Assembly (NCBI GenBank): GCA_015056105.1
Contig: SVGX01000003.1
Span: 128-64,127 of the forward strand
Direction: 5' to 3'
Source: Clostridiales bacterium
GTDB taxonomy: Bacteria; Bacillota; Clostridia; Christensenellales; CAG-138
Length of the DNA stretch: 64,000 bases
Both the position numbers and the translations under genes were made by a program. Below, piece by piece: positions 35,499 through 62,880 of this stretch (its first letter is position 1; every line of letters begins with the position of its first letter). Below the pieces are notes generated by a model. The model ran no database searches. It was not told the DNA's origin and saw only the letters and a program-made list of their open reading frames with translations.

Positions 35499-35663
35499 AA
35501 AACCGCGTGAAAAGGGATCATTTTAAGAGGATTGCGTTTTTCGCAGTCCTCTGCTCCGTTGGGAAACATGGAGCGTGACGGAATATGCCGCATCAAAAGC
35601 GTTCGGGATACCGCGTACAAGCGGCAGCGCCGCTGCGCGGGGCTATGCGGTTTTCGGGAGGTT

Positions 35664-46863: not shown

Positions 46864-46923
46864 ACCGGTGGCGCAGCAAATGCGGCAGACACACAGGGAA
46901 CCAAGCAAAAAAGGAGAGAATCG

Positions 46924-47229: not shown

Positions 47230-47239
47230 GGAGGAAAGC

Positions 47240-47671
47240 ATGGAACACAAAGAGATCAACATCCCCTTTACCAACCCCGATTCCGGCAAGAGCCTGCTGT
47301 GGTTCCCGGAAAACCTGCTGGAGCAGATCGGCTCTGCCCTTACACACCTGAAAACAGCCACGATGACCATCCGTACCTCTCCTGAGGTAATGCAGGCAAA
47401 GGCTGCCGAGGTGCATACCGCTGCGGCGGAGATCCGCCGGGAGTTTGAAGATCTGATCCGCGCTGTGGAAAGAACATCCGCCTATTGGAACGGCAACGCG
47501 GCAGAGCAGCACCGCCGGCGCGCCGCTGCCATGAAACCCAAAGCGGAGGATATGATCGCCTGCCTTGAGCAGCATGCGGCAAACCTGCAGCAAATCGCAG
47601 GCCTTTATACGGCGGCGGAAACAAAGGCGAAAAGCACGAGCGCTGCACTGCCCACGGATGCCATCGAGTAG
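47240..47671 (+). CDS. WXG100-like protein with about 40-aa N-terminal extension
   Basis: Start after AAGGAGGAAAGC. YWNGNAAEQH motif, LYTAAE, and C-terminal tail ALPTDAIE. Confidence 0.7.
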   Translation: MEHKEINIPFTNPDSGKSLLWFPENLLEQIGSALTHLKTATMTIRTSPEVMQAKAAEVHTAAAEIRREFEDLIRAVERTSAYWNGNAAEQHRRRAAAMKPKAEDMIACLEQHAANLQQIAGLYTAAETKAKSTSAALPTDAIE

Positions 47672-47682
47672 GAGGAAAGCGG

Positions 47683-47997
47683 ATGAAAACGAAAGCCGAG
47701 ATCGAGTTCAATTTTGAACAGGCGCGCCGCAGGGCTGCAGAGCTGGAGGAGATCGCACAGGATCTTGAAAGCCTTGCCAAAAGGGATATGGAGAACACCA
47801 GGGCGGAGCTTGCCGCCGCCTGGAAGGGGGAGAGCGCACAGCTTTTCTGCGGCAAAAGCGATAAGCTGCAGCAGGATATCGCTTCAACGGCAAAGGAGCT
47901 TGCGGCCGTAGCCGGCTCCATCCGTGAGATCGCCCGCCTTGTTTATGAGGCGGAGATGCAGGCGCTTCAGATCGCCGCACAGCGGGACTATGTATAA
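47683..47997 (+). CDS. WXG100 family protein
   Basis: 104 aa with AWKGESAQLF motif. AGGAGGAAAGCGG RBS. Confidence 0.7.
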   Translation: MKTKAEIEFNFEQARRRAAELEEIAQDLESLAKRDMENTRAELAAAWKGESAQLFCGKSDKLQQDIASTAKELAAVAGSIREIARLVYEAEMQALQIAAQRDYV

Positions 47998-48094
47998 CGA
48001 TCGCTTCGGCGCGAAGCGATGAAGAGGAAACCGGCGCTCCTTTTAGGGGGCGTAACAATACAGAGACCATCAATCCAACAGGAGGAAGAGAACC

Positions 48095-48400
48095 ATGGCA
48101 AACGGATATGTTGTTACCACTGCAGCCCTTCGCCGCACGGCACAGGAGCTCAGGGATCTGAACAGCCAGTACAGGACCCGTGTGGAATCCCTTGCGGGCC
48201 TTGAGCAGGAGCTGCGCAGCATGTGGGAGGGCGAGGCAAACATCGCGTTTCAGCATGCATTTGCCAGCGATAAGGTAAACCTTGACAATTTCTATTCCGT
48301 CATTGAGCGGTATGTGCAGGCGCTTGAGACTGCTGCTGCGGAATATGAAAAGGCAGAAGCGCAGGCCACCCAGACCGCAACCACCCGCACCTATCGCTGA
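48095..48400 (+). CDS. WXG100 family protein
   Basis: 101 aa with MWEGEANIAF motif and EYEKAE. CAGGAGGAAG RBS. Confidence 0.75.
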   Translation: MANGYVVTTAALRRTAQELRDLNSQYRTRVESLAGLEQELRSMWEGEANIAFQHAFASDKVNLDNFYSVIERYVQALETAAAEYEKAEAQATQTATTRTYR

Positions 48401-48439
48401 TAGGGTGCAGCCGGAGCAACGAGCGAAAGGAGACAAATC

Positions 48440-48754
48440 ATGGATGGTATTTTGAAAGTAACGCCTGCTGCACTGCGGGCAAAATCCGGTGAATTCGATC
48501 AGAACAGGGCTGCTGTGCGCGGTCTCATCGAGCAGATGAATGCCAAGGTCAGCGGTATGAACTCCGTTTGGCAGGGCGATGCGGCCACGGCCTATCAGAC
48601 TTCCTATAACGGCCTTCGCGATGACATTGAGCGAATGGACCGCATGATCGCCGAGCATGTGCGCGATCTCAACGAGCTGGCGGATGTTTATGCCAGGGCG
48701 GAGAGCGCAGTGGAAGCTGCCGCGCAGGCGCTTCCCAAGGATGCGATCCAGTAA
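48440..48754 (+). CDS. WXG100 family protein (most EsxA-like member)
   Basis: 104 aa. ILKVTPAALRAKSGEF..., VWQGDAATAY with W at residue 44, VYARAE, and C-terminal tail ALPKDAIQ. Confidence 0.8.
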   Translation: MDGILKVTPAALRAKSGEFDQNRAAVRGLIEQMNAKVSGMNSVWQGDAATAYQTSYNGLRDDIERMDRMIAEHVRDLNELADVYARAESAVEAAAQALPKDAIQ

Positions 48755-48800: not shown

Positions 48801-48838
48801 GTGTGCATGTCGGGAAGGTATATTGGGGGAGTGAGCTG

Positions 48839-50743
48839 ATGAAACGGATGATCATAGCCGCCCTGCTGGCAGTGGCTGCGTTTCTTTGTGCTGCATGCGG
48901 CCTGTTTCGGCCATCGCCGGAAAAGCAGCTGGGACTGCTTCTGGAGGATGCGGAGCGGCTCGAGCTTGCGGGCAATTATGAAGAGGCCGTTCTCAAATAT
49001 GAAGCTGCCATTGTGATAGAGCCGAAAAATGCGGCGCTTTATGCTGCTGCGGCTGCCGCCTATACCGAGATCGGCGACCGGGAAAATGCCGAAAAACACT
49101 ACAAGAACGCGATCCAATGCGAACCCGGCGCTGCAGAGCATTACCTTGCGCTTTCAGCGCTCTATGCCGCCGATGGGGATACGGGCGGTGCGGCGAAGGT
49201 ACTTCAGGCGGCGCATGTCGCCATACCGGAGGATGCTGACATCGTAAAGGGCATCAATGCCCTTGCGGAGGCAGCCTTCAGCCATTATCTCAACGAGCGG
49301 CTTTTGCCGCAGCGGGGACTTTCCTCCTTCTTCACTGTGGATATGGGCGGTTGGTTTCCCTGGCGGGCAGACGGCCTGATCGGCGCCTGCCTGTTCGATC
49401 TTGATCTTGACGGCATCGATGAGATGCTGCTGTTTGAGCATACCCTTGCCAACGATAAGACCGCACCCGCGGCGGGATACCGCACGGGAGAGTATGCACA
49501 GTATCTGGACGAAGGCACCGTGATACGTGTTTATGCCTATGAAGGCGGCATGGTCACGCAGAAGTCCTATATTATCCTGCCCAATGATTATTCCATCCAT
49601 GCGGAGCTTTTCCTTATCAAAGGGCAGGGGAAATGCTGCTTTGCGTTTTACCGGGAGGACAGCGAACACTATGATGAAATGGAAGTCTTTGCCTATGCGG
49701 AGCGGGGGCTTGAAACCGTTGTGGGGTATACCGCTTACGCGGGCGGCGTCGAAGCCTGGACCACAGGCGCAGAGCTGTTTCCTGCGGATGCGGCACTTCT
49801 TCGGGAATTTCAGCCCGGGGATGGAGACAGCGCACCTTATCTGCTGTTTACGATGCGGCAGTCGGAGTATGACTGGGATGAGATCATGAGTTATGAAGAA
49901 TTTGAAGCATCGCAGAAATACCCGGGCGTGCAGTCTGCTCTTGATGCACTTCTTCGCCCCATCGGCTTGAAAGCGCATCGTGATGCGAACTATGGCAGCA
50001 GCGGCGAAGTGCGTTTTTCCGCAATGCAGGGATACCAAAGGATCGATCTTTTGCGTGAGGTGCGTCCGTCCGATCAAAGCTGGGATTTTATCACCGACGG
50101 GCACCGCGATGTGCTTGGCGATGCTGTGCGCTGGCTGCCCCTTGGATCGGCGTCGGCGGATCCCAAGGATATGCGCGGCCGTGCGCTTGCCGCTTATGCG
50201 GCGCTTCTTCGCAGCGGCCCGGAGCTTTATGAGGGGGAAGGCTATTCCTATTCCCTTCTGCTTGATGCTTTTGCCCTTGTGGATATCAACGGCGACGGGA
50301 TAGAAGAGCTGATCGCCGGCGAGGTGGACGATCACCCATACGACGGCGTCATTTCGCAAGAGCCGAATGTGGACAACGTCAACATCTATACCTATACGGA
50401 TACTGGCATTCGTTTGCTGGATTCGGTCTTTATCTGCGCGCTGGAGCATGAGGGTACGGATAAACTCGACCTTGTGGACGGCTGCAGGCTGCTCACTTAC
50501 AATTACGGCACTTCGGGCTATCAGGGCTACTATTTCGGCGAATGGGATGGGACGGGCGAGCTTGTCTGGACGAGGTACAGCACATACCTTTCCGGTGATT
50601 ATGATAACGAGGTGACGGTTTATGCCCTTAACGAAGAGCCCATCAGCGAGCAGGAATTCAACAGCATGCCAATGGGCGATACGGTGCCCGTCAGATTTTA
50701 TTACAACAACGAAACGACCCGCGCGGAACTGCTCGGGGAGTAA
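48839..50743 (+). CDS. lipoprotein with TPR repeats and DxDxDG-type (FG-GAP/VCBS-like) motifs
   Basis: Lipobox FLCAAC, TPR (AGNYEEAVLKYEAAIVIEPKNAALY...), then FDLDLDGIDEMLLF and VDINGDGIEELIAG. Start trimmed to the ATG at 48839 after GGGGGAG. Confidence 0.65.
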   Translation: MKRMIIAALLAVAAFLCAACGLFRPSPEKQLGLLLEDAERLELAGNYEEAVLKYEAAIVIEPKNAALYAAAAAAYTEIGDRENAEKHYKNAIQCEPGAAEHYLALSALYAADGDTGGAAKVLQAAHVAIPEDADIVKGINALAEAAFSHYLNERLLPQRGLSSFFTVDMGGWFPWRADGLIGACLFDLDLDGIDEMLLFEHTLANDKTAPAAGYRTGEYAQYLDEGTVIRVYAYEGGMVTQKSYIILPNDYSIHAELFLIKGQGKCCFAFYREDSEHYDEMEVFAYAERGLETVVGYTAYAGGVEAWTTGAELFPADAALLREFQPGDGDSAPYLLFTMRQSEYDWDEIMSYEEFEASQKYPGVQSALDALLRPIGLKAHRDANYGSSGEVRFSAMQGYQRIDLLREVRPSDQSWDFITDGHRDVLGDAVRWLPLGSASADPKDMRGRALAAYAALLRSGPELYEGEGYSYSLLLDAFALVDINGDGIEELIAGEVDDHPYDGVISQEPNVDNVNIYTYTDTGIRLLDSVFICALEHEGTDKLDLVDGCRLLTYNYGTSGYQGYYFGEWDGTGELVWTRYSTYLSGDYDNEVTVYALNEEPISEQEFNSMPMGDTVPVRFYYNNETTRAELLGE

Positions 50744-50775: not shown

Positions 50776-52119
50776 ATGGCTGAGTTTTATGTCAAATCGG
50801 AAGGCCTTGACGCCTGTGCTGTGCGGTATGGGAAGCATACCGTGCAGCTTATGCATGCGCAGGATCGGATCCGCACCGTCAGAAATAAGCTGAGCGGCGC
50901 CTTGTGGGAAAAGTCCGGCCTGCGGGACAGCCTGAAAAAAACCGCTTCCGCCTGCGGTGACGGCGCTGCGGCCGCAGGCAAAATGGGGGTGGCGCTTTCC
51001 AAAGCCGCTAATTTATACAGCAAATGCGAGCGCGGCATCATCGCCTATGAAAAGGTGCAAAGGGAGCAGGAAGCGCTGAACGGGAAACATGAGGAGCTGC
51101 TTGCCTTTGTCAACGATCCCTACAGCAGTATCCTTTTTATCGATTTTAACCGCTACAGCGAGGAGATCAGCAATCTTGGCTTTAGTGATGCGTTGCTGCT
51201 GGCCGTCAATAACGGCTTTGGCCTGGATATCCTCATCGGAAATCTGCAGGGCAAGGATTACGAGACGGAGGTCATCAAAAGTCAGCTGGCGCAGATCCTC
51301 TGCAATATGGAGGGGCGAAGCGGCACCCTTGAAGTGCCAGATGAGGTCAAACTCCTTGTGGAGGGGCTGCAGGCGGGCGCCGAAAAGGGCCTTGAAAACG
51401 CGGATGACATCGCGGCGTTCCTTGCGGAAGCGGGCTTGAAGGATATCGATCCGAAGATACTCAAACAATACGCGGATATCCTCGACAAAGTGGATATCGG
51501 CCTCATTCTCGAATCCGGCGAAAAAGGCGTGCAGCTTCTCCAGTATGCCTTGACCGATTACCGGGAAAGCATCAAGACCCTTGAAGCTTTCCGCCAATTC
51601 GGCGGGGAAGGAAGCGTCAACGCGGCGGTGGATGATATGATCGCCCTGTATCAGAACAAGTTTATCGGCAGCCTGCAGCAAACGGCGGAGTTCGTGCATG
51701 AAAAAGTGGTGGAAAAGGGCGCGGAACTGGCCTTTGACGCGATGACGGGCGGCCTTTACAGCGCGGTGGATTTCGGCACGGAGCTTTTGATGGAGTTTTC
51801 CGGCCTGAGCGACACTGCGGATGCGAAGGAGTCGCTTATGGGCAACGCGATCCTTGAATACGATGTTTCTTCGGCCTATTCCGAGGCGCTCGAAGCCCTG
51901 CGGGACGGCAGCTTTACCGAGGCGGATGTGGATACCGCAAAGCGCATGTTCGAAATGCAGAAATCCATCAAGATCGCACAGTATGAAAACCTGCTGACGA
52001 TTTGTGATGATGCGCCCAGGGAAACAAAAAATGCCATCAAAAGCGAACTGGAGTTTATCAAATCGCTGCAAATGGATGTGGAGAGCATCGGGGCGGTGAA
52101 GCAAAGAAGAAATCAATAA
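50776..52119 (+). CDS. 447-aa all-helical protein with WXG100/LXG-like N-terminal hairpin (candidate T7SS substrate or adaptor)
   Basis: No signal peptide. The N-terminal 100 aa are helical, with LYSKCE at the end of the hairpin. The rest has no motif I recognise. Confidence 0.5.
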   Translation: MAEFYVKSEGLDACAVRYGKHTVQLMHAQDRIRTVRNKLSGALWEKSGLRDSLKKTASACGDGAAAAGKMGVALSKAANLYSKCERGIIAYEKVQREQEALNGKHEELLAFVNDPYSSILFIDFNRYSEEISNLGFSDALLLAVNNGFGLDILIGNLQGKDYETEVIKSQLAQILCNMEGRSGTLEVPDEVKLLVEGLQAGAEKGLENADDIAAFLAEAGLKDIDPKILKQYADILDKVDIGLILESGEKGVQLLQYALTDYRESIKTLEAFRQFGGEGSVNAAVDDMIALYQNKFIGSLQQTAEFVHEKVVEKGAELAFDAMTGGLYSAVDFGTELLMEFSGLSDTADAKESLMGNAILEYDVSSAYSEALEALRDGSFTEADVDTAKRMFEMQKSIKIAQYENLLTICDDAPRETKNAIKSELEFIKSLQMDVESIGAVKQRRNQ

Positions 52120-52142
52120 GGCATTGCCGGAAAGTTGACCCC

Positions 52143-52958
52143 ATGAAGAAAAAAATATGCGCAGCTGTTTGCGCTTTGATCATATTATTGTTGGCGGCGG
52201 GCTGCGGCACGCTGCCGGAAACCTTTGAAAATGAGAAAGAGATCGGACAGGAGGACAATATGGAAACGGTAAAGCTGACCAACGAGGAAAAAGAACTGCT
52301 TTGCAGCATGTATTCCGGAGAGGAGCGTATCTGCCGGGGCGATCTGCTGGACCATGAGATCGCGCTGCTGGAGCAGCTTCGTTTCGGCATGTCCTACCTG
52401 TCGGAAAAATACCCGAAGCATCGCTTTGAAATGACCGCCTGCATCCCGCAGGGCAAAATGGAGACGCATACCACCGTGTCCGTCTGTGCCGAAGGGGTGG
52501 ATGGCGTTTACACGCTGCGCCTTGAGACGCTCCCGGACGGTACATACCTTGCGGAGGATGATTTTTATGCTGTCACCATCCGGGAGGAATATACCGCCAT
52601 GCTCCGGGCTGCCGCCAAAGCGGCCGTGGCCGGGACCCTTGGCGTGTGGGCGGAGTTTCCGGGCCTTTACGGCATGGAATGCGGCGCTGCAGGATATGAC
52701 CTTGCAGCCGCCGCAAAGGATGGCAGCATGGTGTTTGCGGAGTGCGCCGTGTATGTGGACGGCCGCAGCGATGCTGCGCCCGATGCCGTTTCGGCAGCGC
52801 TGAAACAGGCGCTGGCGGATAAAGGCTTCCGCGGTAACTTCTATGTCTATGTGCTGGAAGAAGTGCCCGAGGACGATATCACGGATGAAGCCCTTCGTGC
52901 CTTTGTGAAGGAAAACGTGGGCGCCGATGCTTATGTGCGCGAAAAGTTTTCGCTGTAA
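52143..52958 (+). CDS. lipoprotein of unknown function (candidate immunity protein)
   Basis: MKKKICAAVCALIILLLAAGC lipobox. Sits between the helical protein and the hydrolase gene. Confidence 0.6.
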   Translation: MKKKICAAVCALIILLLAAGCGTLPETFENEKEIGQEDNMETVKLTNEEKELLCSMYSGEERICRGDLLDHEIALLEQLRFGMSYLSEKYPKHRFEMTACIPQGKMETHTTVSVCAEGVDGVYTLRLETLPDGTYLAEDDFYAVTIREEYTAMLRAAAKAAVAGTLGVWAEFPGLYGMECGAAGYDLAAAAKDGSMVFAECAVYVDGRSDAAPDAVSAALKQALADKGFRGNFYVYVLEEVPEDDITDEALRAFVKENVGADAYVREKFSL

Positions 52959-52982
52959 GCGGCGGGAGAGGAGGGCTATACC

Positions 52983-54632
52983 ATGGCACTGAGCAAAGAA
53001 CAGCTGCTGCTGCTTAACAACCTTATGTATCTTCCGGATATAAAAGCGGAGGATGGGCACCCCGTCAGCTATCCGATCCATAAGCTGCCCGATGATTATC
53101 AGACCGTGGGGGATATCGTCAACAACCTGCAGGCGAATTATGCCCATGTCGACAACAAAGGGGAATACGGCTCCTATACCTCCGGAACGGACTGGAAAAA
53201 CCTCATCAATGCCATCTCGCAGGATGAAACGCTGATGAACATGCAGATCGTTGCCACCCATGTGGATAATGGCCCCACCGGAGGCGGCGGTAAAAGCGCC
53301 CTGTTTGTGGACCCTGCAAACGGCGAAGCGGTAGTCACCTTCCGTGGCACAGCCAGCGGCGAGTGGAAGGATAACTTCGTGGGCGGCACCGCCACCAACG
53401 CGGCGGATGGTGTATCCACCCCCCACCAGCAGAACGCCCTTGATTGGTATGAGAGCCTCGATCTGTCCGGCTATGAGACCGTTACCGTCACCGGCCATTC
53501 CAAGGGCGGCAACAAGGCGAAGTATATCACCCTGATGGATGATTCGGTGGACCGCTGCGTTTCCTTTGACGGGCAGGGCTTTTCCGATGAATTTATCGAG
53601 AAATACGGCGATGCCATCACCATGCGCCAGCATAAGATCGAAAACCACAACGTGGATGGCGACTATGTCAACATGCTCCTCAACGATGTGGGCGAGACCT
53701 ATTATTACGATGCCTTCCGCGGCACGGACAGCTTCCTTGAAAACCACTGCCCCAATACGTTTTTCAAGTTTGACGCAAACGGCAACCCCGTCATGGTGCC
53801 GGGTGAGCGCTCGCCGGTGATCGCGGCGGTGGATGAGTTCCTCAACAGCCTGCTGCGCTCCGCTTCCCCTGCTCTCAAGAAACAGCTTCTTACCTTTGCG
53901 GGCGAGCTTGCGGACTGCGCCCTTGCGGGTGATTTTTCCGTTGATGACCTGATGGTCATCCTGCGGGATGAGGATTCCGTGGAAGCTGCCGGTTATCTTA
54001 TTGCCTATTTGCTGGAATACCCCACGGCCAATGCGGCCCATGACATCAAACAGTTCCTTTCCGATGTGGGGCTTGGCGATCTCAACTGGATCATCAGCGG
54101 CGTGGAGAAGCTGCTTGATTCGGATATTGCCGCCTGGATCGTGGAGCAGATCGCCGATGGCGGGGCCTGGGCGGTGGATGCCATTCCCGACTGGCTGTAT
54201 AAAAAGATAACGGGCTTTTTCGGCATCGATCTCAAAAAAGAGGATATCGTGTTCGTGCTGCAGCTGGTGGGTGCCACCTTTGATGCCAAGCAGCAGATCG
54301 AAGTGGTACCGGATTCCGGCAAGGATATCAGCCTGCCTTCCCTCGGGGGCACGCCTGCCTGCTTCAGCGTATATGCGGATACTCTGCGTGCGGCGGCGGA
54401 AAAGCTGGGGGAGGCCTCCTTTGACCTTGCCCGCAGTGCGGATGCCGTAACGGTGCAGCGGAAAAAGACGAGCCTTTTCCTCGGCGTGATCCGCATCCGC
54501 CTCGGCAGCATTGCAAGAAAGCTCGACAAGCAGAGCACCAAAGCCCGCAAAATGCAGAATACCCTCGCAAGCGTGGCAGAGCTGTATGAGAAGGCGGAAA
54601 AAGCCGCCGCAGCCCACGCAAACACAAAATAA
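52983..54632 (+). CDS. DUF2974/Mbeg1-like alpha/beta hydrolase (lipase/esterase fold) with C-terminal WXG/LXG-like helical domain
   Basis: VVTFRGTASGEWKDNF...TVTGHSKGGNKAKY (GxSxG). No signal peptide. The C-terminal 110 aa are helical and end ...ASVAELYEKAEKAAAAHANTK. Confidence 0.7.
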   Translation: MALSKEQLLLLNNLMYLPDIKAEDGHPVSYPIHKLPDDYQTVGDIVNNLQANYAHVDNKGEYGSYTSGTDWKNLINAISQDETLMNMQIVATHVDNGPTGGGGKSALFVDPANGEAVVTFRGTASGEWKDNFVGGTATNAADGVSTPHQQNALDWYESLDLSGYETVTVTGHSKGGNKAKYITLMDDSVDRCVSFDGQGFSDEFIEKYGDAITMRQHKIENHNVDGDYVNMLLNDVGETYYYDAFRGTDSFLENHCPNTFFKFDANGNPVMVPGERSPVIAAVDEFLNSLLRSASPALKKQLLTFAGELADCALAGDFSVDDLMVILRDEDSVEAAGYLIAYLLEYPTANAAHDIKQFLSDVGLGDLNWIISGVEKLLDSDIAAWIVEQIADGGAWAVDAIPDWLYKKITGFFGIDLKKEDIVFVLQLVGATFDAKQQIEVVPDSGKDISLPSLGGTPACFSVYADTLRAAAEKLGEASFDLARSADAVTVQRKKTSLFLGVIRIRLGSIARKLDKQSTKARKMQNTLASVAELYEKAEKAAAAHANTK

Positions 54633-54654: not shown

Positions 54655-56958
54655 ATGTCGGATATTCGCGATTTTGAGCCGCTTTTTGGCGAGTGGAAAA
54701 TTGAAGAAAAGCTTGGTGCGGGCAGCTACGGCAGCGTGTACAGCGCCGTGCGCACGGAGTTTGGCCGGGAATACCGTTCCGCCATCAAGCATATCAGCAT
54801 CCCCATCGGTCGGGATGAGCTCAACAGCATTTATGAAGAGGGCTATGCTTACGATGAAAACAGCGCCCGGCGGTATTATCAGCAGGTGCTCGTAGGGCTG
54901 ATCGAAGAGATCGAGCTGATGGACAGGCTCAAGGGCAACACCAACATCGTGGCCTATGAAGATCACAAGATCATCGAGAAAAAGGATATGCCCGGTTACG
55001 ATGTGTTCATCCGCATGGAATTGCTCAAAAACCTGCACCGCGCGCTGGGCAGCGGCCCCATCACGCCTGCGGAGGTATGCCGCCTTGGCATCGATATCTG
55101 CACGGCACTGGAGGTGCTCGGTAAGGAGCATATCGTGCACCGCGACATCAAGCCTGCCAACATCCTTGTCAATAACCTTGGCGATTATAAGCTGGCGGAT
55201 TTCGGCGTGGCAAGAAAGATGGAGCGTACCACCACCGTGATGAGCGTGAAGGGTACCTATACCTACATGGCGCCGGAGGTCTTCAAGGGCGAAGCGGCAG
55301 GCCCGGGGGCGGATATCTATTCTCTCGGCATCGTGCTGTACCGCCTGCTCAACAACAACAGGGCGCCTTTTGTCAGCGTCAATGCGGCGGAGGTCACCCC
55401 CACGGATAACGAGACTGCACTTGGCCGCCGGATGCGGGGCGAACCGCTGCCAATGCCCGCCCATGCGGATTCATGGCTCGGCAGCATCATCCTTACTGCC
55501 TGCGCCTTCCGGAAAGAGGATCGCTTCCTGTCGCCTACCGCCTTTAAACGGGCGCTGCAGGAATATCTTGCAAGCGGCGCCGCAGGCAAGGCTGCCACAG
55601 CTGCCGCACCGGCGGAAACGCCCTACGATAAGACCACAAAGCTTGACCCTACTGCCTATGGGCAGCGGAGTGCGGCGGATGAAGCGAAGCACAGGGCAGC
55701 GGAAGCGAAGAGCAAGGCCGAAGAAGAGAAAGCCGCAAAAAAGAAAGCGGCCGCTGCACGGGCGCAAAAAGAGGAAGCGGAAAAAGCCCGCCGCTATGCG
55801 GCTGCGGCAGATGCCGCAAAGCTGAACCGCCCTTCAAAGGAGCCCCTTCGCAGGCCGCAAACGCCGGAGGATGCCGCTGCCTCTGCCAAAATAGAAGAAA
55901 CAAGAAACCGAAAGGCCAAAAGGACGATGCTTTGGGCCATGCTGCCCTGTGCGCTGTTTGTAGCGCTGATATTATTGGGGAGATTACTGGCACAGCATTT
56001 TTCGGATAACATGAAAACGGAAACGACTGCGGGGGCGGCAATATCCTTTACGCCTCCTTCACAGGCTGTCGAAGCACCTGTTTCCACACCCGAACAGCAG
56101 AAACCTGCATTCAGCATCGATGAAAACAGCATTGTGCTGGCCCGGGGGCAGGAGCATGCGGTGGGCCTCCGTGCGGACGGCACGGTGGTTGCAGTCGGCG
56201 GCAGCCATGGCCAGGATGAGGTAGATACCTGGCAGAATGTGGTTTCCGTTGCGGCAGGAACTTTCCACACGGCGGGCCTTCGTGGGGACGGCACGGTGGT
56301 TGCGGTGGGTTCTGAGTGGGCATGCAAAAATGTGGCGGACTGGGAAAACGTGACCGCCATTGCCGCAGGCGGGGATTATACCGTTGGCCTTAAAAAGGAT
56401 GGCACTGTGGTAGCTACCGACATGGAGGGCCACGGCGCATGCGATGTGGCGGACTGGCGGGATATCGTGGATGTGGCGGCTGGCTATTGCCACACGGTCG
56501 GCCTTCGCGCGGACGGTACCGTGGCAGCGGTAAGCAATATTGACAACGAAGCGTGTGATGTTGCCGCATGGCGGGATATCGTGGATGTGGCGGCGGGCGA
56601 ATTTTCTACCTTTGGTCTTCGTGCCGACGGCACCGTGGTCATGGTGGGAACCGCCACCGAGATGACCAAGGAGCAGATCGCAGCGCTGCAGGGCGTGGCG
56701 GCCATCCATGCGGATAGCGAGCATGTTTTCGCCCGGCTGCAGGACGGCACTTCCGTGATCATATCGGACAATAAAGAGATACAGCCGCTTTCCGGCAGAC
56801 AGGATGTTGCCTTTGTTGCGGGAAAGTATGATATCTCCCTCCTCCTTAAAACCGACGGCACGGTGGAGCTTCTTTGCAGCCAATATGTGACGGAGGAAGA
56901 AAAGGCATATTTTGCGGAAGTTCTGAACTGGCGGCTGGCCGTACCGGGCAACAACTGA
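54655..56958 (+). CDS. Hanks-type Ser/Thr protein kinase, TM helix, extracellular RCC1-like beta-propeller repeats
   Basis: GAGSYGSVY, AIKHI, HRDIKPANIL, DFG and MAPE; a K/A/E-rich linker; TM MLWAMLPCALFVALILLGRLLA. Then 5-6 repeats of AAGxxHTxGLRxDGTVVAVG. Confidence 0.85.
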   Translation: MSDIRDFEPLFGEWKIEEKLGAGSYGSVYSAVRTEFGREYRSAIKHISIPIGRDELNSIYEEGYAYDENSARRYYQQVLVGLIEEIELMDRLKGNTNIVAYEDHKIIEKKDMPGYDVFIRMELLKNLHRALGSGPITPAEVCRLGIDICTALEVLGKEHIVHRDIKPANILVNNLGDYKLADFGVARKMERTTTVMSVKGTYTYMAPEVFKGEAAGPGADIYSLGIVLYRLLNNNRAPFVSVNAAEVTPTDNETALGRRMRGEPLPMPAHADSWLGSIILTACAFRKEDRFLSPTAFKRALQEYLASGAAGKAATAAAPAETPYDKTTKLDPTAYGQRSAADEAKHRAAEAKSKAEEEKAAKKKAAAARAQKEEAEKARRYAAAADAAKLNRPSKEPLRRPQTPEDAAASAKIEETRNRKAKRTMLWAMLPCALFVALILLGRLLAQHFSDNMKTETTAGAAISFTPPSQAVEAPVSTPEQQKPAFSIDENSIVLARGQEHAVGLRADGTVVAVGGSHGQDEVDTWQNVVSVAAGTFHTAGLRGDGTVVAVGSEWACKNVADWENVTAIAAGGDYTVGLKKDGTVVATDMEGHGACDVADWRDIVDVAAGYCHTVGLRADGTVAAVSNIDNEACDVAAWRDIVDVAAGEFSTFGLRADGTVVMVGTATEMTKEQIAALQGVAAIHADSEHVFARLQDGTSVIISDNKEIQPLSGRQDVAFVAGKYDISLLLKTDGTVELLCSQYVTEEEKAYFAEVLNWRLAVPGNN

Positions 56959-56994
56959 TATTTCTTTTCTCATAGTTCCAAGGAGCAGAACAGC

Positions 56995-58956
56995 ATGAAA
57001 CCCTACGAACAAACTTATCAGATCCTCTCCACGCTGGGACGCGGCGGCATGGGCGCGGTGTATCTTGTAAAGCACCTGCGCCTCGGCACGCTGTGGGCCC
57101 TTAAGGAGATCGATAAAACAGCCGGCGGGCAGGTGGACCTGCTTGCGGAAGCCAACATGCTCAAGCGGCTTTCCCATCCGGCGCTGCCCCGCATCATCGA
57201 TATTTATGAGGATGCGGCGAGCATCTATATCGTGGAGGATTATATCGAGGGCGTCAGCCTGGATAAACGCCTTCGCGAAGCGGGCAGGTTCCCCGAAAGC
57301 ACCGTGCGCCTTTGGGCGGAGGAGCTTTGCGGCGTGCTTCGCTATCTGCACGAGCAGCAGCCCAACCCCATCATTTACCGGGATATGAAGCCCGGCAACG
57401 TGATGATCACGCCGGATAACAAGGTGAAGCTCATCGATTTCGGTATCGCCCGGGAATTCAAACAGGAAAGCAGCGGCGATACCACCAGCCTCGGCACCCT
57501 TGGCTATGCGGCGCCTGAGCAGTACGGCACCGCCCAGTCCGATGCAAGAACGGATATCTACAGCCTTGGCGTAACGCTTTACCATGCCGTGACCGGCAAA
57601 AGCCCCAAGGATCCACCCTATGAGCTTCTGCCCATCCGCCGCTGGGATGCTTCCTTCTCGGAAGGGCTTGAATACATCATCGCCAAATGCACCCGCACCA
57701 ACCCCAATGAGCGCTACCAAAGCATCGCGCAGCTGCAGGCGGATCTGAAGAATATCGACCGTTTTTCTGCTTCAAGCCGCAGACGAAAGGCGGTGGATGC
57801 GCTCAAACTCACCGCCTGCGCGCTCATGATCCTCGGCGGCGCTGCTTTTATGCTGGCGGGCTATGCCCAAAAAGGCGTTGAAGCGCAGGAAGCATACCGT
57901 GCCCGCTATGAAGAAGGTATTGCGCTGGTGGAAGCGGGGGATATGGATGCGGCCCGCCTTGCGCTGACGGATGCGGATGCTTCCCTGCCCGGCAGCACGG
58001 ACGGCCGCTGCGCTTATCTTGCGGCGCTCATCAATGCGGATGAAACAGCCGCTGCGGCTTCCTTCGGCGCGGAGGCTCTCTCTAAAGATGCCGCTCTTGA
58101 ACTGGATGCGCGCTTCAACTACTATTACGGCGTGGCGCTCGAAGCGGAGGGCAACATACACGGCGCTGTTGCGTGCTTTGAAAACGCAAACATGATGGAG
58201 CCCGGGCAGCTTCTCTATATGCGCTCCCTTGCCCGCGCCTACGCGGCGGCGGGAGAACTGGACCTTGCCAATGCGCTGTTCTCGGAGATCGCCATCATGG
58301 CGGATAACGGCACCACTGCCTTTGTTTATGCCGGCATTCTTGAGGCACAGGGCGAAGCGGAACAGGCGGAAACGGAATATCGCCGCGCCATTGAGAACGG
58401 CACGGATGAGGATATCCGCATCGCCGCGTTTAGGGCGCTTGCCACCATGCTGAGAAGCGGCCGCGAAGGGGATCCTGCCCTTGTGGAAAAGGAGATCGAA
58501 ACGCTGCTTTCCATGCAGCGCACCTTCCCCGATAAGGAGGAGGCCTTCATCCTTGAACGGCTGGGCGAAGCCTATTTCGCAAGAGGCGTTCTGAGCGGCG
58601 CGGAAGCGGATCTTGAAGCGGCGGCGGACAGCTTCCGCGCGCTGATCGACCTTGGCTACGGCCGCGCCAGCACCTATCTCAACATCGCCGTGATCGAACA
58701 GCGGCGCATGGATTACGCTGCGGCGGAGGAAACGCTGCTGACGCTTCTTGACCGCTATCCCAACAACGGGGATGGCTGCATCCAGATGGCGTTTCTCATC
58801 GCGGAGCGGGAGGGGCAGAAGCCCCAGAGCGAGCGCGATTATGCTCCCGTGGTGGAATATTACGAGCGGGCAAAGCTTTGCGGCGCAGCGGGTGCGAACC
58901 TGCAGCGGCTTGAAGGCGTGATAGAAGACCTGAAGTCCGGCGGCTGGATAGCGTAA
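56995..58956 (+). CDS. Hanks-type Ser/Thr protein kinase, TM helix, extracellular TPR repeats
   Basis: GRGGMGAVY, ALKEI, YRDMKPGNVMI, DFGIARE and AAPEQ; TM LTACALMILGGAAFMLAGYA; then TPR-like helical repeats. Confidence 0.85.
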   Translation: MKPYEQTYQILSTLGRGGMGAVYLVKHLRLGTLWALKEIDKTAGGQVDLLAEANMLKRLSHPALPRIIDIYEDAASIYIVEDYIEGVSLDKRLREAGRFPESTVRLWAEELCGVLRYLHEQQPNPIIYRDMKPGNVMITPDNKVKLIDFGIAREFKQESSGDTTSLGTLGYAAPEQYGTAQSDARTDIYSLGVTLYHAVTGKSPKDPPYELLPIRRWDASFSEGLEYIIAKCTRTNPNERYQSIAQLQADLKNIDRFSASSRRRKAVDALKLTACALMILGGAAFMLAGYAQKGVEAQEAYRARYEEGIALVEAGDMDAARLALTDADASLPGSTDGRCAYLAALINADETAAAASFGAEALSKDAALELDARFNYYYGVALEAEGNIHGAVACFENANMMEPGQLLYMRSLARAYAAAGELDLANALFSEIAIMADNGTTAFVYAGILEAQGEAEQAETEYRRAIENGTDEDIRIAAFRALATMLRSGREGDPALVEKEIETLLSMQRTFPDKEEAFILERLGEAYFARGVLSGAEADLEAAADSFRALIDLGYGRASTYLNIAVIEQRRMDYAAAEETLLTLLDRYPNNGDGCIQMAFLIAEREGQKPQSERDYAPVVEYYERAKLCGAAGANLQRLEGVIEDLKSGGWIA

Positions 58957-58989
58957 GGCTGCCCTTGCTGATCAAGAAAGGATACATGT

Positions 58990-59310
58990 ATGAGCGGAAA
59001 TACTCTTATGCTGATCGGGATCGCTATGGCGGCCCTTGGCGTGCTTCTGCTGTGTTTGCAGCTTGCTGCCATGAAAAACCGGGGAAAACGGGCAAAAAAA
59101 GCATCATCGGCGGCGGATCTGCCCGCGGCTCCCGTTGTGTCAGCCCCGCGCCGGGCCGAAAAACCGGCTGCTGCAGCTGTGGCGGATGAAGCCACCGTGA
59201 AGCTTTCCTATGCAGCGGATGAAGAGAAGAACGTGAAACTTTCTTCCGCGGCGGAAAATACCGCTGCAAGCGGGAATGAAGCGGATCAGACTGTCCGTCT
59301 GGAGGGATAA
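58990..59310 (+). CDS. small single-pass membrane protein with three [TN]V[KR]L repeats in a cytoplasmic tail
   Basis: 106 aa with good RBS. TM LMLIGIAMAALGVLLLCLQLAA, then KNRGKRAKK, then a low-complexity tail with EATVKLS, KNVKLSS and QTVRLEG. Confidence 0.55.
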   Translation: MSGNTLMLIGIAMAALGVLLLCLQLAAMKNRGKRAKKASSAADLPAAPVVSAPRRAEKPAAAAVADEATVKLSYAADEEKNVKLSSAAENTAASGNEADQTVRLEG

Positions 59311-59315
59311 GGCCG

Positions 59316-60116
59316 ATGAAGCTGAAGGTCAGCGCTGCGGTGTGCAGCCATAAAGGCAAAATACGGGGCAACAACGAGGATGCCTTCCTGCTCAACGGCG
59401 TTTATCTTCCTCTGGAGAAGATGGACGAAGGCGGGCTGTTTACGGCACAAACAGAGACTTCCTTCCAGCTTTATGCCGTTTGTGACGGCATGGGCGGCGA
59501 GGAGGCGGGGGAGCTTGCTTCCTTTGCAGCGGTGGAGACCTTTGCGAAGCTTCTAAAAGATGCTTCGCGAAAAACGGATGTCCGGCCTGCTATTGACAGC
59601 GCTGTGCAGCAGGCCAACGGGGCTGTGCTTGCCCTTGATAAAAATGCGGGCTGCACCATGACGCTCCTTTGCCTGCAGGGCGGAAAGGCGACCGTAACGT
59701 GGCTGGGCGACAGCCGTATTTACCTTCTGCGCTGCGGCGAACTGCTGCGTCTGAGCGAAGATCATACCCAGGCCCAGCGGCTGCTGAACATGGGCGTGTT
59801 CGATGCGCTGACTGCAAAAACGCATCCTTCAAGCCATGTGCTGACCCGCTATATCGGCATGGAAACGGAGGGCTTCGCGCTGCAAAGCGCCTACGGGGAA
59901 ACGCTGACCCTCAAGGCGGGGGATGTGTTCCTCCTTTGCAGCGATGGCCTTACCGACATGGTGGAAGAGACGGAGTTTGCCGCTCTTCTTAATAAAGATG
60001 CTAAGAGCGCTGCGGAAGAGCTTGTGAGCGCGGCGCTTGCAAACGGCGGCCGCGACAATGTGACCGCCATGGCAGTCAGGGTAGAGCAAGTGAAGAAAAA
60101 CATCTTTGGCCGGTAA
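59316..60116 (+). CDS. PP2C-family Ser/Thr phosphatase
   Basis: RGNNEDAF, AVCDGMGG, LLCSDGLTD and NGGRDNVTAM metal-binding motifs. Confidence 0.9.
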   Translation: MKLKVSAAVCSHKGKIRGNNEDAFLLNGVYLPLEKMDEGGLFTAQTETSFQLYAVCDGMGGEEAGELASFAAVETFAKLLKDASRKTDVRPAIDSAVQQANGAVLALDKNAGCTMTLLCLQGGKATVTWLGDSRIYLLRCGELLRLSEDHTQAQRLLNMGVFDALTAKTHPSSHVLTRYIGMETEGFALQSAYGETLTLKAGDVFLLCSDGLTDMVEETEFAALLNKDAKSAAEELVSAALANGGRDNVTAMAVRVEQVKKNIFGR

Positions 60117-60211
60117 CGGTTCGCCATAAAATCGAAACAACACCGATAAAGCAGCAATTTGTAACAGCAGAACTGTGGCGTTTGCAGCTTGATCATACAC
60201 GGAGGGATCCA

Positions 60212-62749
60212 ATGAAACACACCATGAAAAAAGCCAATGCACTGATACTGGCGGCGCTTTTCGTTTTTACACTGCTCCCCATGTCTGCCATGGCAGGCGT
60301 CAGCACCGAATATATCGGTATGACCGGCGTAAGCTTCAGCCATAACATGTTCATCGACGGCACATGTGAAACCGAGTGGGAGGGCAGTGCCGAGCAGCCC
60401 ATGCTGTCTCTTTTGGTGTACAGCACCGATACCCTTCCCACCGATGCATCGGGCAATTACCGTTTTCCCATCAACATCACGCTTCAAAAGCCTGCCGGCA
60501 TTTCTGAGGATGCGCTGCCATTCCTTCTTGAAAGCGATCATGCTTACTCCGCCTCCCCGCTGCCTTTCGGTTCCACATCGCAGCAGATCGATCTTATTGC
60601 CGACAAAGAGACTTTTACAGAAAGCTTCGTTGTCGGCGAACTGGTCATCCACTGGCTGGAAGGCACCGACATCGCCGCCGTTACCAAACTTTCCTACGGC
60701 ATATTCAACAAAACAGGCCCCGCTGTCAGCGCTCCCGATGGCAGCCGCGTCAGCTTCGCCTTCCCCATTGATGGCGTAGCGTCCGAGTACAGCAACGGCA
60801 CGCTGACGCTCACTTTGAACGAGACATCCGTTGATCAGATCGCCGCGGTGTATACCCCGGGACTTCAGTTCCTGCGCGGCACAGTCAGCGTGAGCGCACC
60901 CTCCGGCACCGAATCGTTCTGGGCCGGAAGCATGGACCATGCCTATTTTACAAACGGGTACATCAACAGCTCCAACTATAAAACCGGCAGCGGATATTCC
61001 CACGCCATCGACCTGCACCAGATCAATTCTTCCGATTCCGGCATAACCGTTATTCCCCTTGACAACGCAGGCAACAACAACGTCATCTCCCTGTATTTTG
61101 CATGGAAGGACAGCTCCGGCAGCATCACCGCCGAAAAAGTGAATGTTGTTGTCAAGCTCGGCACTGCAAAGGTTACGAAAGTGCCTTCCTCCGCATTGCC
61201 TGCCATTTGCGCAGTGCCCGCCGACCGCATGGCCCGCGCTTCGTTAATGATGGACCGTGCCGACGGCGCCGGCATCACCTTCAGCTATTCCGAGACCGAC
61301 GGCATTGCAAAGTTTTTCCACAGCAAAACGCCTGCCGCCATTTCGGAATATGCATTTTCAAAGGCCGGTGAGTGGGGCGATAAGGAAGCCCTCATCCCCC
61401 TGGGTGTACAGATCACGGCTCCCGATGGATTTGATACCTATGCCCTCATCATTAACGGCAGCGAAAGTGCCCCCTCGCCTGTTGACAGGAAGCTGAAGGC
61501 CATGTTTTACTCTACCGTGCTGTTTTCCGCGCGGAACGGCATTACGACAGATGATACGGATATCACCATAAAGTGGACGTCCACGACCTCCAATGCTGTG
61601 AAGTACGAGCTCTTCACTTTCTGCACCATCTTTGACAGCTTTACCTGGATGGATAAATACTGGGCACCAGCACCCGCTGCCGCTTTGGAGACCAAACCTA
61701 TTGTGGAAGCTTTGAAAGACGCAGGCCTTGAAGTGAAAGTTGAAACGGGAGCGATCAAGTGCTCCTTCAAAGAGGGCTACCTTCCCACCGTTGCGCAAAT
61801 GCAGAAGATCCGAGGTGCCGAGTTTACCGTCACAGCGCCTGCCAATGCCGCAGCCAAGCGCATTGCGGGTTCTTCCTACAATGATACCGCTTACAATGAC
61901 AGCCGTGCCAACAGCGCAAAATCTACCATAGACAGCACACCTGCTCTTGCTATCGACACCATGTGCGGCGGTATCTGCCCTATTCAGAAGGTTGAAATAG
62001 ACGGCATTTCCTACTACAACACGCTGAATGACGGTGCAAGGCAGGTGCTCGTTCAGTTTTATGATAATGCAGGCAATCTGATCACAGTTGACGGCGCAAA
62101 CGGTGAAAAGCTGAACGGCTATTATGTCCGCATCGAAGTTGAACCCTTTGAATACACGATCGAATCGGAAGTTGTGCCGGAGATAACCTCCCCTGCCGAT
62201 ATTCCCGTTATGGTATGCGAGCGTAAGCCCGGCAATAAATACAGCCTGTTCGTTAAGCTTTATCCCCAGGAAGGCAGCAACAAAAAGTACTTCCTTAAGC
62301 TTGAGACAGATCTGGAAGAGTCCGATATGCAAAACGGCGTTGATGTTTACATCCCCTATCACTACATCGACCCCAATATGACCTATGAAAAGGCCATTGC
62401 CGACAATACCGTCTTCAAGGTCAAGCATTATGACAAGCATAACACCTTCAAGGAGGAGCTTGTCGGTACACCCACGGAAAACGGCATCAAATTCACCGTT
62501 ACGGATCTCAGCCCCTTTGTGATTGAGGCTGCCGAAGGCTCCGGCAGCAACAGCGGATCCGGTCCGCTTTACGGAGATGCCAACTGCGATGGCGAATATA
62601 ACCTGCAGGACGTGGTATTTGTGGCTGTCTGTGCAAAAGGAAACGCTGCCATCACCGAGGCCGGCAGACTTAATGCGTCGATCGCAGCAGGTGCCGCACC
62701 TACCGCGCTTGATTCCCTACGGCTGGCAAAAGGACTGCTGTTCCAATAA
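60212..62749 (+). CDS. large secreted protein with C-terminal dockerin-like Ca-binding module
   Basis: Signal peptide MKHTMKKANALILAALFVFTLLPMSAMA. The body (about 780 aa) has no motif I recognise. The C-terminus has LYGDANCDGEYNLQDVV (DxNxDGxxxxxD loop), but the second loop is degenerate. Confidence 0.6.
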   Translation: MKHTMKKANALILAALFVFTLLPMSAMAGVSTEYIGMTGVSFSHNMFIDGTCETEWEGSAEQPMLSLLVYSTDTLPTDASGNYRFPINITLQKPAGISEDALPFLLESDHAYSASPLPFGSTSQQIDLIADKETFTESFVVGELVIHWLEGTDIAAVTKLSYGIFNKTGPAVSAPDGSRVSFAFPIDGVASEYSNGTLTLTLNETSVDQIAAVYTPGLQFLRGTVSVSAPSGTESFWAGSMDHAYFTNGYINSSNYKTGSGYSHAIDLHQINSSDSGITVIPLDNAGNNNVISLYFAWKDSSGSITAEKVNVVVKLGTAKVTKVPSSALPAICAVPADRMARASLMMDRADGAGITFSYSETDGIAKFFHSKTPAAISEYAFSKAGEWGDKEALIPLGVQITAPDGFDTYALIINGSESAPSPVDRKLKAMFYSTVLFSARNGITTDDTDITIKWTSTTSNAVKYELFTFCTIFDSFTWMDKYWAPAPAAALETKPIVEALKDAGLEVKVETGAIKCSFKEGYLPTVAQMQKIRGAEFTVTAPANAAAKRIAGSSYNDTAYNDSRANSAKSTIDSTPALAIDTMCGGICPIQKVEIDGISYYNTLNDGARQVLVQFYDNAGNLITVDGANGEKLNGYYVRIEVEPFEYTIESEVVPEITSPADIPVMVCERKPGNKYSLFVKLYPQEGSNKKYFLKLETDLEESDMQNGVDVYIPYHYIDPNMTYEKAIADNTVFKVKHYDKHNTFKEELVGTPTENGIKFTVTDLSPFVIEAAEGSGSNSGSGPLYGDANCDGEYNLQDVVFVAVCAKGNAAITEAGRLNASIAAGAAPTALDSLRLAKGLLFQ

Positions 62750-62847
62750 GAATAACACGGAAGGTGAATTGCCAAACTTCGTGCAACCGGCAGAAAGTTC
62801 AAAGCCACAGAGAAACTGAGCAGAGCGAAATGGAAGAACCTTACGGG

Positions 62848-62880
62848 ACCCGGCGGTGAGCAACGCCGGGTTCTTTTTTA
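62848..62880 (+). terminator. rho-independent terminator
   Basis: acccggcg / cgccgggt 8-bp stem followed by TCTTTTTT. Confidence 0.75.

Follow-up and report, generated by a model that had tools for sequence, protein, structure and literature searches.

Membrane kinases, a PP2C phosphatase and FHA proteins encoded in a type VII secretion locus of a Clostridia-wide EssC clade: a candidate threonine-phosphorylation switch

The window (the whole stretch of DNA analyzed, 64,000 nucleotides, positions 128 to 64,127 of the forward strand of contig SVGX01000003.1 in the Clostridiales bacterium assembly GCA_015056105.1) contains a type VII secretion system (T7SS) block of about 23 kb, which lies on one strand (+) and ends with the genes of two Hanks-type Ser/Thr kinases (K1 and K2), a small membrane protein and a PP2C phosphatase. 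These four genes (54655-60116), separated by 36, 33 and 5 bp, form the signalling end of a T7SS locus that belongs to a Clostridia-wide EssC clade without EssA, EssB and EsaA. Intergenic gaps in the block range from 5 to ~100 bp. The strongest + strand intrinsic-terminator-like hairpin (11 pairs followed by a T-run) was located at 62845-62874, after an open reading frame (ORF) of 855 amino acids (aa), and no comparable + strand terminator was found between 36.9 and 60.1 kb. The shared strand, the small gaps and the lack of a strong internal terminator agree with the first-pass annotation of this DNA, in which the kinases and the phosphatase were placed in an operon-like T7SS block.

K1 (54655-56958, +, 767 aa) was matched by the Pfam families Pkinase (1e-36) and RCC1_2 (4.9e-22), and K2 (56995-58956, +, 653 aa) was matched by Pkinase (1.8e-48) and TPR families. 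The catalytic motifs of K1 are GAGSYG, AIK, the alphaC Glu, HRDIKPAN, DFG and APE; those of K2, a YRD variant, are GRGGMG, ALK, the alphaC Glu, YRDMKPGN, DFG and APE. Both kinases are of the RD type, and their activation loops are rich in Thr (RTTTVMS in K1 and GDTTSLGT in K2). The comparison with PknB proposed in the first-pass annotation returned PknB of Mycobacterium tuberculosis as the top solved-structure match for both kinases (K1, 1.2e-19; K2, 2.9e-31). The earlier claim that both keep all catalytic motifs was borne out by the sequences themselves, by the PknB alignments and by an alignment of 65 locus kinases in which the catalytic columns were checked. By motif criteria, K1 and K2 are predicted to be catalytically competent Hanks-type kinases. 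A hydropathy scan, from which the topology of the window proteins was taken, placed one transmembrane (TM) segment in each (residues ~423-441 in K1 and ~269-287 in K2), and the first reading of the DNA had likewise called both kinases transmembrane. The kinase domains should therefore be cytoplasmic, with the RCC1 domain of K1 and the TPR domain of K2 external. In K1, a long Lys/Ala/Glu-rich linker separates the kinase domain from the TM segment.

The small protein (58990-59310, +, 106 aa; an alternative gene call by JGI, on the source contig in metagenome 3300031555, starts at 59008 and gives 100 aa) has a single TM segment followed by a disordered cytoplasmic tail. The last gene of the four encodes a cytoplasmic PPM/PP2C phosphatase (59316-60116, +, 266 aa; Pfam PP2C, 1.1e-17), the equivalent of TsxF of described T7SS variants. 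Aligned with PppA and PstP, it keeps all of the PP2C metal motifs (NEDA, DGMGG, SDGL and RDN), as had been claimed. Its top PDB match was the T6SS phosphatase PppA (6jkv, 1.2e-28), followed by PstP (1.5e-27).

The secretion genes lie upstream. The EssC-type T7SS ATPase (38602-43566, +, 1654 aa; Pfam FtsK_SpoIIIE, 9.4e-53) has an N-terminal FHA domain (residues 115-178, 1.3e-12), a TM region and three P-loop domains of the FtsK type; with 1030 bits, it exceeds the cut-off of the NCBIfam model TIGR03928 (778). Directly before it, a vWA-TM-FHA protein is encoded (36877-38532, +, with a probable true start at ATG 36919; Pfam VWA, 2.3e-18, and FHA, 3.6e-14). This protein has a signal peptide, an intact metal-ion-dependent adhesion site (DISRS...T...D) and a TM segment at ~358-376; its vWA domain is therefore expected outside and its FHA domain inside the cell. 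After essC come a YukD/EsaB-like ubiquitin-fold protein (46218-46466, +; Pfam YukD, 1.2e-12), which is equivalent to TsxB, and a cluster of six tandem small helical genes on the + strand (46570-48754; 46570-46863, 46924-47229, 47201-47671, 47683-47997, 48095-48400 and 48440-48754), five of which have WXG100 Pfam matches (2e-11 to 9e-16). The window thus encodes the generic T7SS set of an EssC-type ATPase, WXG100 proteins (five genes) and a YukD-like protein. No Pfam or NCBIfam match to EssA, EssB/YukC or EsaA was found among the proteins scanned between 22 and 62.7 kb, and the three are likewise absent from the related loci L005 and L006. The system is not T7SSb, of which these components were not detected.

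In a scan of one genome per species with the window EssC, at least 597 relatives were recovered. The best 80, which are 38-52% identical to it over the full length and come without exception from Clostridia, were used as the locus set (labels L002-L091 denote the compared loci, and L001 denotes the source contig, including the stretch beyond the window end). Among the best 120 protein-database matches, full-length relatives (~1660 aa) were 46-80% identical, and those with a name were from Lachnospiraceae, Blautia, Eubacterium, Ruminococcaceae and Anaeromicropila. A partial EssC identical to that of the window is on deposit from a Clostridia metagenome-assembled genome. The clade is widespread, in at least 80 species of Clostridia from Lachnospiraceae, Oscillospiraceae and their relatives; Blautia luti, Anaerosporobacter faecicola and Oribacterium sp. 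are among its carriers.

For comparison with the published subtypes, the N-terminal halves of EssC proteins copied from Fig. S2 of Garrett et al. (PMC11217815) were searched by BLASTP, with one machine-read, error-containing representative per subtype. The window EssC was 28% identical to TsiC (209 bits), 26% to TseC (206 bits), 27% to TsdC (161 bits), 25% to TsjC (152 bits), 23% to TsfC (160 bits) and 23% to the EssC of T7SSb (130 bits). The published representatives were 21-31% identical to one another (TsdC and TseC, 29%, 261 bits), and identity within the clade of the window was 38-52%. By this measure, the window EssC appears to be about as far from each of the tested subtypes as these are from one another. 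Four members of the clade that were in RefSeq before 2024 (WP_271715220, WP_167955908, WP_090815085 and WP_031547503) are absent from the accession lists of the same study. These comparisons, a limited test with a single machine-read representative per subtype, indicate that the clade is probably an uncatalogued T7SS subtype, apparently closest to T7SSi and T7SSe among those published.

Gene content agrees with neither of these subtypes in full. In T7SSi, a LytTR regulator (TsiN) and an EspG-like protein (TsiG) are encoded next to TsiC, and there is no kinase (PMC11217815); the window has neither a LytTR gene nor the ~230-aa protein gene that follows LytTR in relatives, and it does have kinases. 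As in T7SSe and T7SSj, the window combines an EssC with an N-terminal FHA domain, YukD-like and WXG100 proteins and the absence of EssA, EssB and EsaA with a single-pass active kinase carrying an ectodomain, a cytoplasmic PPM phosphatase and a separate FHA protein, so that K1, K2 and the PP2C correspond in domain make-up to the TsxD kinase and the TsxF phosphatase. The TPR ectodomain of K2 is like that described for TsjD, and the architecture of the small protein, single-pass with a disordered tail, is like that of TsxK and TsxH. In contrast, neither TsxJ (DUF6382-FHA) nor the large Ig-like TsxI was matched in the window scan, and the FHA partner in the window is an extracellular-vWA/TM/FHA protein. 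The window also differs in having two kinases, one of them with an RCC1 propeller, and a TPR-RCC1 lipoprotein that is translationally coupled to essC. Finally, the TsxC of T7SSe and T7SSj has GR, SxxH and NG in its FHA domain, whereas the window EssC has GK, SKRH and NG.

The 80 EssC loci were annotated by phmmer with the domains of the window as queries, and features within 10 kb of essC were counted in a fully flanked subset, 41 loci of different species that extend 9 kb or more to either side of the gene. A Hanks kinase was present in 29 of the 41 loci (71%), a PP2C in 24 (59%) and an FHA partner in 21 (51%), and at least one of the three was found in 38 (93%); these percentages are lower bounds, because K1 of the window itself starts 11 kb past the end of essC. 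Two or more kinases occurred in 13 loci (32%). The background control was reused from a metagenome scan with K2 and comprised 80 loci, each centred on a generic Clostridial kinase. As a rough background, only 1 of these 80 loci had an extra kinase, and 1-3 of them were near T7SS genes. Among the 65 aligned locus kinases, the catalytic Asp is kept in 63, the Asn in all 65 and the DFG Asp in 64.

The usual order in the 80 loci is an optional kinase, EssC, LytTR, a soluble 230-aa protein, YukD, about four WXG100 proteins, vWA-FHA, PP2C and a kinase. Other orders occur; in L006, whose EssC is 61% identical to that of the window, a K2-like kinase, a small ORF, a TPR gene, a PP2C and vWA-FHA are followed directly by essC. 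The trio of K2, small protein and PP2C lies beside WXG100, TPR-RCC1 and lipase-module genes in L002, L003 and L091, where K2 is 71-72% identical. The functional linkage of the signalling set to the T7SS is therefore well supported by the locus counts, by the arrangements in L006, L002, L003 and L091 and by the conservation of catalytic residues.

The two kinases differ in their conservation. K2 orthologues that are 60-98% identical were found in T7SS loci, and of the two kinases it is K2 that is conserved in the loci of near relatives. For K1, the nearest homologue outside its own contig was only 45% identical, and K1 appears from these comparisons to be a locus-specific extra sensor kinase. 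A role of K1 as a conserved T7SS component was considered and rejected, since the orthologue search returned no close relative outside the source contig and the two family members examined lie in contexts without T7SS. The metagenome scan with K2 returned mostly generic PP2C-kinase pairs that share the sequence DMKPGNVM, and one new full-length orthologue (L091).

K2-like genes were also seen in other surroundings. In Anaerobacillus alkalidiazotrophicus (L089), a K2-like TPR kinase, a PP2C and a small ORF lie with an FHA-FHA-ABC transporter beside EPS (exopolysaccharide) genes. On the strength of this one EPS and ABC-transporter neighbourhood without T7SS, the idea that distant K2 homologues in Anaerobacillus and Bacillus (Bacillus sp. 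OTU530) are TscD of T7SSc was rejected. In a Bacillota metagenome-assembled genome (L090), the K2-like TPR kinase, PP2C and small ORF occur with an FHA-Trans_reg_C regulator and secreted TPR, RCC1 and TPR-LRR proteins. These cases suggest that the K2 cassette is a portable sensor module which is plugged into different FHA outputs, including the T7SS in the window. Two further Clostridial clusters (L004:16085-21977 and L087:284-10125) contain (vWA-FHA), kinase-FHA, PP2C, FHA, FHA, kinase and kinase-RCC1 genes, with no T7SS genes in the stretch covered, and resemble the actinobacterial FhaA/FhaB/PstP/PknA/PknB arrangement.

Such clusters bear on the possibility that the kinase/PP2C cassette is an independent envelope-signalling module with another target, which came to lie beside the T7SS genes by chance, for example on the same island. 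K1- and K2-family kinases with PP2C and FHA partners do occur in loci without T7SS, only 1-3 of the 80 kinase loci of the K2 metagenome scan were near a T7SS, and operons of vWA, Ser/Thr protein kinase (STPK), FHA and PP2C genes exist in unrelated bacteria (Deinococcus preprint). A chance neighbourhood is difficult to reconcile with the strong enrichment around the EssC clade in at least 80 species, in which the gene order varies but co-location persists, with the tight same-strand packing from the effector genes to the end of the block, and with an FHA membrane protein whose gene adjoins essC in the window as it does in many relatives. We consider an independent module quite unlikely. The domain set in the window is the same as in the actinobacterial FhaA-FhaB-PstP-PknA-PknB and Deinococcus DRA0331-0334 (vWA-STPK-FHA-PP2C) cassettes; unlike such generic FHA/PP2C/kinase cassettes, it is embedded in a T7SS locus and comparatively linked to it.

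EssB of T7SSb is a universal core subunit and catalytically dead. K1 and K2 resemble EssB/YukC in that a kinase fold in the cytoplasm is joined by a single TM helix to an extracellular domain, and in having an EssC with an FHA domain as partner. The first-pass annotation had suggested that live kinases may occupy the niche of EssB. In its strongest form, this would make the kinases structural core subunits which replace EssB and bind to the FHA domain of EssC, while catalysis would be of secondary importance. The shared topology and the absence of EssB, EssA and EsaA fit such a replacement, as does the poorly conserved Arg of the EssC FHA domain, a feature of T7SSb, where FHA-EssB binding is independent of phosphorylation (PMC11217815). 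Read as obligatory structural partners, however, the kinases are a poor fit. Within 10 kb of essC, 12 of the 41 full loci have no kinase. The number of kinases per locus varies from 0 to 3. The ectodomains of the locus kinases are unrelated between loci (TPR, RCC1, PASTA, OmpA, SBP_bac_8, NHL, or none recognizable), and even the closest relatives have no conserved counterpart of K1. The Pfam YukC model did not match K1 or K2 at E <= 0.01. Unlike EssB, both keep every catalytic residue; the strict conservation of these residues points to selection on enzyme activity, and a dedicated PP2C is encoded alongside. Since they vary in number and in ectodomain, the kinases look like accessory regulators rather than replacements of EssB, and we regard a structural role as very improbable.

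The first-pass annotation had counted two FHA proteins in the block, EssC and vWA-FHA. Pfam confirmed both, but the two domains differ in their conserved motif residues. Among 81 EssC FHA domains of the clade, the Gly of GR is kept in 79, and the Arg position is not conserved, with Lys (27) and Ser (18) the most frequent residues; the S and H of SxxH are kept in 70 and 78, and the N and G of NG in 81 and 80. In TsdC, TseC and TsjC, GR and SxxH are conserved in 98-100% and NG in 90-100% (PMC11217815). Among 47 separate FHA partners from the loci, GR is present in 39 (GK in 5 more), and S, H and N are present in 44 each. The vWA-FHA protein of the window has a canonical FHA domain with GR, SGRH and NG. 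Because the partner FHA domain is canonical and the Arg of EssC is not conserved, the vWA-FHA protein beside essC is the likely reader. The EssC FHA domain would be at best a weak reader, as in T7SSb.

Many FHA domains prefer pTxx(I/L), and a Thr with an aliphatic residue at +3 fits this preference. Threonines of this kind occur repeatedly in the tail of the small protein of the window (EATVKL and DQTVRLEG at the stop codon), which also has a degenerate copy of the motif (EKNVKL). The orthologue in L002 has STVKL twice and QTVRLEG at the stop codon, and the one in L091 has DSTAKL, DSTVKL and DRTVKL. All three proteins keep [DE]xT[VA][KR]L repeats (2-3 copies in L002 and L091), though their tails have otherwise diverged. 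In the linker of the window vWA-FHA protein, DRTVAL and EKTVSL are located ~40 residues before the FHA domain; the linker of the L006 protein has DRTTSL and DKTVPL, and other linkers have motifs of the GTVLL or KTVMI type. The frequency of TVx[LIVM] per 1000 residues was 4.1 in FHA linkers, 2.0 in kinase juxtamembrane regions and 0.78 in other annotated locus proteins (Fisher p = 8e-9), with the reservations that the motif was defined after the data had been seen, that some matches lie in TM helices and that the enrichment in the broader set is modest. The [DE]xTVxL threonines are thus candidate phosphosites and a specific, testable lead, and the small protein is a candidate phospho-acceptor and FHA docking site. 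Motifs of the same class recur in L018, from an uncultured Clostridium, where the K2-like kinase of the T7SS locus (L018:394-2688) carries four tandem GTVLL/DRTVLL copies in the juxtamembrane segment just after its kinase domain.

Three predicted lipoproteins are encoded in the T7SS block. The first (43563-46196, +, lipobox LLAGC; Pfam WD40_RLD, 2.7e-71, RCC1_2 and TPR_19) has an N-terminal TPR region followed by a large RCC1-like beta-propeller; the end of essC and the start of this gene share 4 bp, and orthologues are present in L002 and L003. The second (48803-50743, +, lipobox LCAAC) has N-terminal Pfam TPR families and no family match outside this region. The N-terminal TPR regions of the two are related (phmmer, 8.8e-9), and the K2 ectodomain is also of the TPR type. 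These shared TPR modules hint at an extracellular TPR-based complex. The third lipoprotein (52143-52958, +, 271 aa, lipobox LAAGC) belongs to a three-gene candidate effector module (50776-54632, +), the same trio as in L002 and L003, together with a 447-aa helical protein (50776-52119, +) and a 549-aa Mbeg1-like alpha/beta-hydrolase (52983-54632, +; Pfam Mbeg1-like, 1.3e-8; GHSKGG). The helical C-terminus of the hydrolase, which ends with ...ELYEKAEKAAAA, holds LYEKAE (a YxxxE motif). The hydrolase resembles the "reverse" lipase toxins of published T7SS variants, which occur at T7SSe/g loci (PMC11217815), and it is preceded by the 447-aa helical protein and the 271-aa lipoprotein, which may be a partner or an immunity protein.

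A LytTR protein (~240 aa, with a receiver-like N-terminus) is encoded directly after essC in 66 of the 80 related loci. In loci such as L005, L006, L011 and L014, the next two genes encode, in this order, a soluble ~230-aa protein, a candidate EspG-like protein, and YukD. The window has neither gene, and the TPR-RCC1 lipoprotein occupies their position.

The LytTR genes of the relatives raise the question of whether the kinases control the expression of T7SS genes through a transcription factor and not the machine itself. The FHA-Trans_reg_C regulator paired with the K2-like cassette in L090 would also fit transcriptional control, and there are precedents: Esr1 in Schaalia acts transcriptionally (PMC13622651), and IreK of E. 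faecalis activates T7SS transcription (cited in PMC11217815). The block in the window, however, contains no LytTR and no DNA-binding protein, its sole FHA partner is a membrane protein encoded beside essC, and the Esr2 pathway, which is Esx-adjacent, acts post-translationally (PMC13622651). Control through gene expression is thus unlikely in our judgment. We lean slightly towards regulation of the T7SS at the protein level through phosphothreonine/FHA signalling.

The domain content, the intact motifs for catalysis and metal binding, the topology, the order of the genes and their comparative linkage to the EssC clade are shown by the analysis. As to the substrates, the direction of regulation and its level (assembly or activity, as opposed to expression), we infer the following course of events. 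K2, the small membrane protein and the PP2C would constitute a portable sensor cassette, with K1 as an additional sensor kinase specific to this locus. A cue at the cell surface would be sensed by the external TPR and RCC1 domains, probably together with the TPR-RCC1 and TPR lipoproteins and possibly with the extracellular vWA domain. K1 and K2 would then autophosphorylate their activation loops and phosphorylate [DE]xTVxL threonines in the tail of the small protein, in the juxtamembrane linker of vWA-FHA, or in both. The FHA domain of vWA-FHA would bind these phosphothreonine sites and, through contact with EssC, promote assembly or activity of the secretion machine, and the PP2C would reset the switch.

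Several observations weigh against protein-level regulation, in addition to the reservations on the motif counts and the doubtful standing of EssC as a phosphothreonine reader, given that its FHA domain lacks the conserved Arg. Besides the loci without a kinase within 10 kb of essC (12 of 41), 3 of the 41 have no signalling gene at all, and L005 (Anaeromicropila herbilytica, AP024169.1, 5.09 Mb) encodes TM-FHA and vWA-FHA proteins but neither a kinase nor a PP2C in the vicinity. Close orthologues of K1 are missing from the most closely related loci, where other genes take its place, and the two K1-family members examined are in a PP2C-FHA-FHA-kinase cluster or a housekeeping context without T7SS. 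Cassettes of the K2 family (~40% identity) also occur without T7SS. PASTA domains were found in 2 of 10 large locus kinases scanned; these two may be neighbouring housekeeping PrkC genes.

The idea that kinases, PP2C and FHA proteins gate a T7SS, including the analogies to EssB and T6SS, was published in 2024 by Garrett, Higginson and Palmer in microLife (PMC11217815). In that study, T7SSc-j were described, in which membrane kinases with an active site occur together with PPM phosphatases and FHA proteins; the TsxD kinases have the topology of EssB with the active site kept, TsjD has a TPR ectodomain, and TsxK and TsxH are small, cross the membrane once and have a disordered tail in the cytoplasm. 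The authors proposed, by analogy to T6SS, that assembly or activity may be controlled by threonine phosphorylation (PMC11217815). The T6SS-like switch of the first-pass annotation is a reasonable reading but matches an existing model and is not new; the linkage beyond chance in the present clade (29, 24 and 38 of 41 loci for kinase, PP2C and any signalling gene) is in line with it.

In the H1-T6SS of Pseudomonas aeruginosa, the threonine phosphorylation pathway consists of PpkA, PppA and Fha1, and PpkA carries a vWA domain on the outer face; in Agrobacterium tumefaciens, TssL is phosphorylated. The window shares with this pathway a membrane Hanks kinase, a PP2C and an FHA reader in a secretion locus, and a vWA domain on the outer face. 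It differs in the secretion machine and the envelope, in the absence of T6SS genes and in the fusion of the vWA domain to the FHA protein instead of the kinase. The likeness appears to hold only at the level of domain families and does not imply orthology.

A functional parallel was reported experimentally for the Esr threat-sensing pathway in Schaalia (Wang et al., September 2026 preprint, PMC13622651). Its parts are a surface sensor with a beta-propeller, MoxR, a vWA protein, kinases, a phosphatase, an FHA output and a transglutaminase; EsrA is an Ig-filament with a beta-propeller. Of the Esr pathways, 40% adjoin esx genes, and the Esx-adjacent copy acts post-translationally on the secretion of some of the substrates. 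According to the preprint, Esr is effectively restricted to Actinomycetes (PMC13622651). Like Esr, the window encodes a beta-propeller, a vWA domain, Ser/Thr kinases, a phosphatase and an FHA protein beside T7SS genes, and in both cases the sensor domains are diversified. Unlike in Esr, the window has RCC1-type propellers that form part of a kinase or a lipoprotein, the vWA and FHA domains are fused across the membrane, and the host belongs to Bacillota. No MoxR ATPase, transglutaminase or Ig-filament sensor was found among the window proteins scanned. The relation to Esr is thus best regarded as an analogy and not as membership. A more specific proposal, possible but tentative, is that a T7SS subtype of gut Clostridia missing from the present catalogue uses a TPR/RCC1 sensor kinase cassette to gate secretion through a vWA-FHA protein that reads [DE]xTVxL sites on the small protein, as a Bacillota counterpart of Esr.

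Just upstream of the block, at 33336-36506, the gene of a 720-aa surface protein is followed by a sortase gene. The surface protein has a thioester domain (TED), a sorting signal resembling PAKTG and a TM segment at its C-terminus; the two genes look like an adhesin/sortase pair, which is probably unrelated to the block. Genes upstream of 33 kb are housekeeping genes (Opp transporter, MATE pump, pyroglutamyl peptidase and MerR regulator). Downstream, the PP2C gene is followed by an 855-aa secreted protein (60182-62749) without a family match. A dockerin was considered for this protein on account of one DxNxDG loop near its C-terminus, but the idea was dropped for lack of Pfam support. A phage-type integrase gene (L001:16803-17924) is located ~1 kb beyond the terminator, just past the window end, and a tRNA search near the 3' end, made as a check for an integration site, found none.

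The clade thus appears to be missing from the T7SSc-j catalogue and shows the signalling genes of these systems as modular accessories. Also new relative to the published model are that K1 is a locus-specific extra, that vWA-FHA, and not EssC, is assigned as the canonical reader, and that the [DE]xTVxL motif gives concrete candidate phosphosites. If the proposal is true, the coupling of propeller-type surface sensors to T7SS through threonine phosphorylation would be a general Gram-positive strategy. How the firing of Gram-positive T7SS is triggered, a long-standing question, becomes directly testable in abundant gut commensals.

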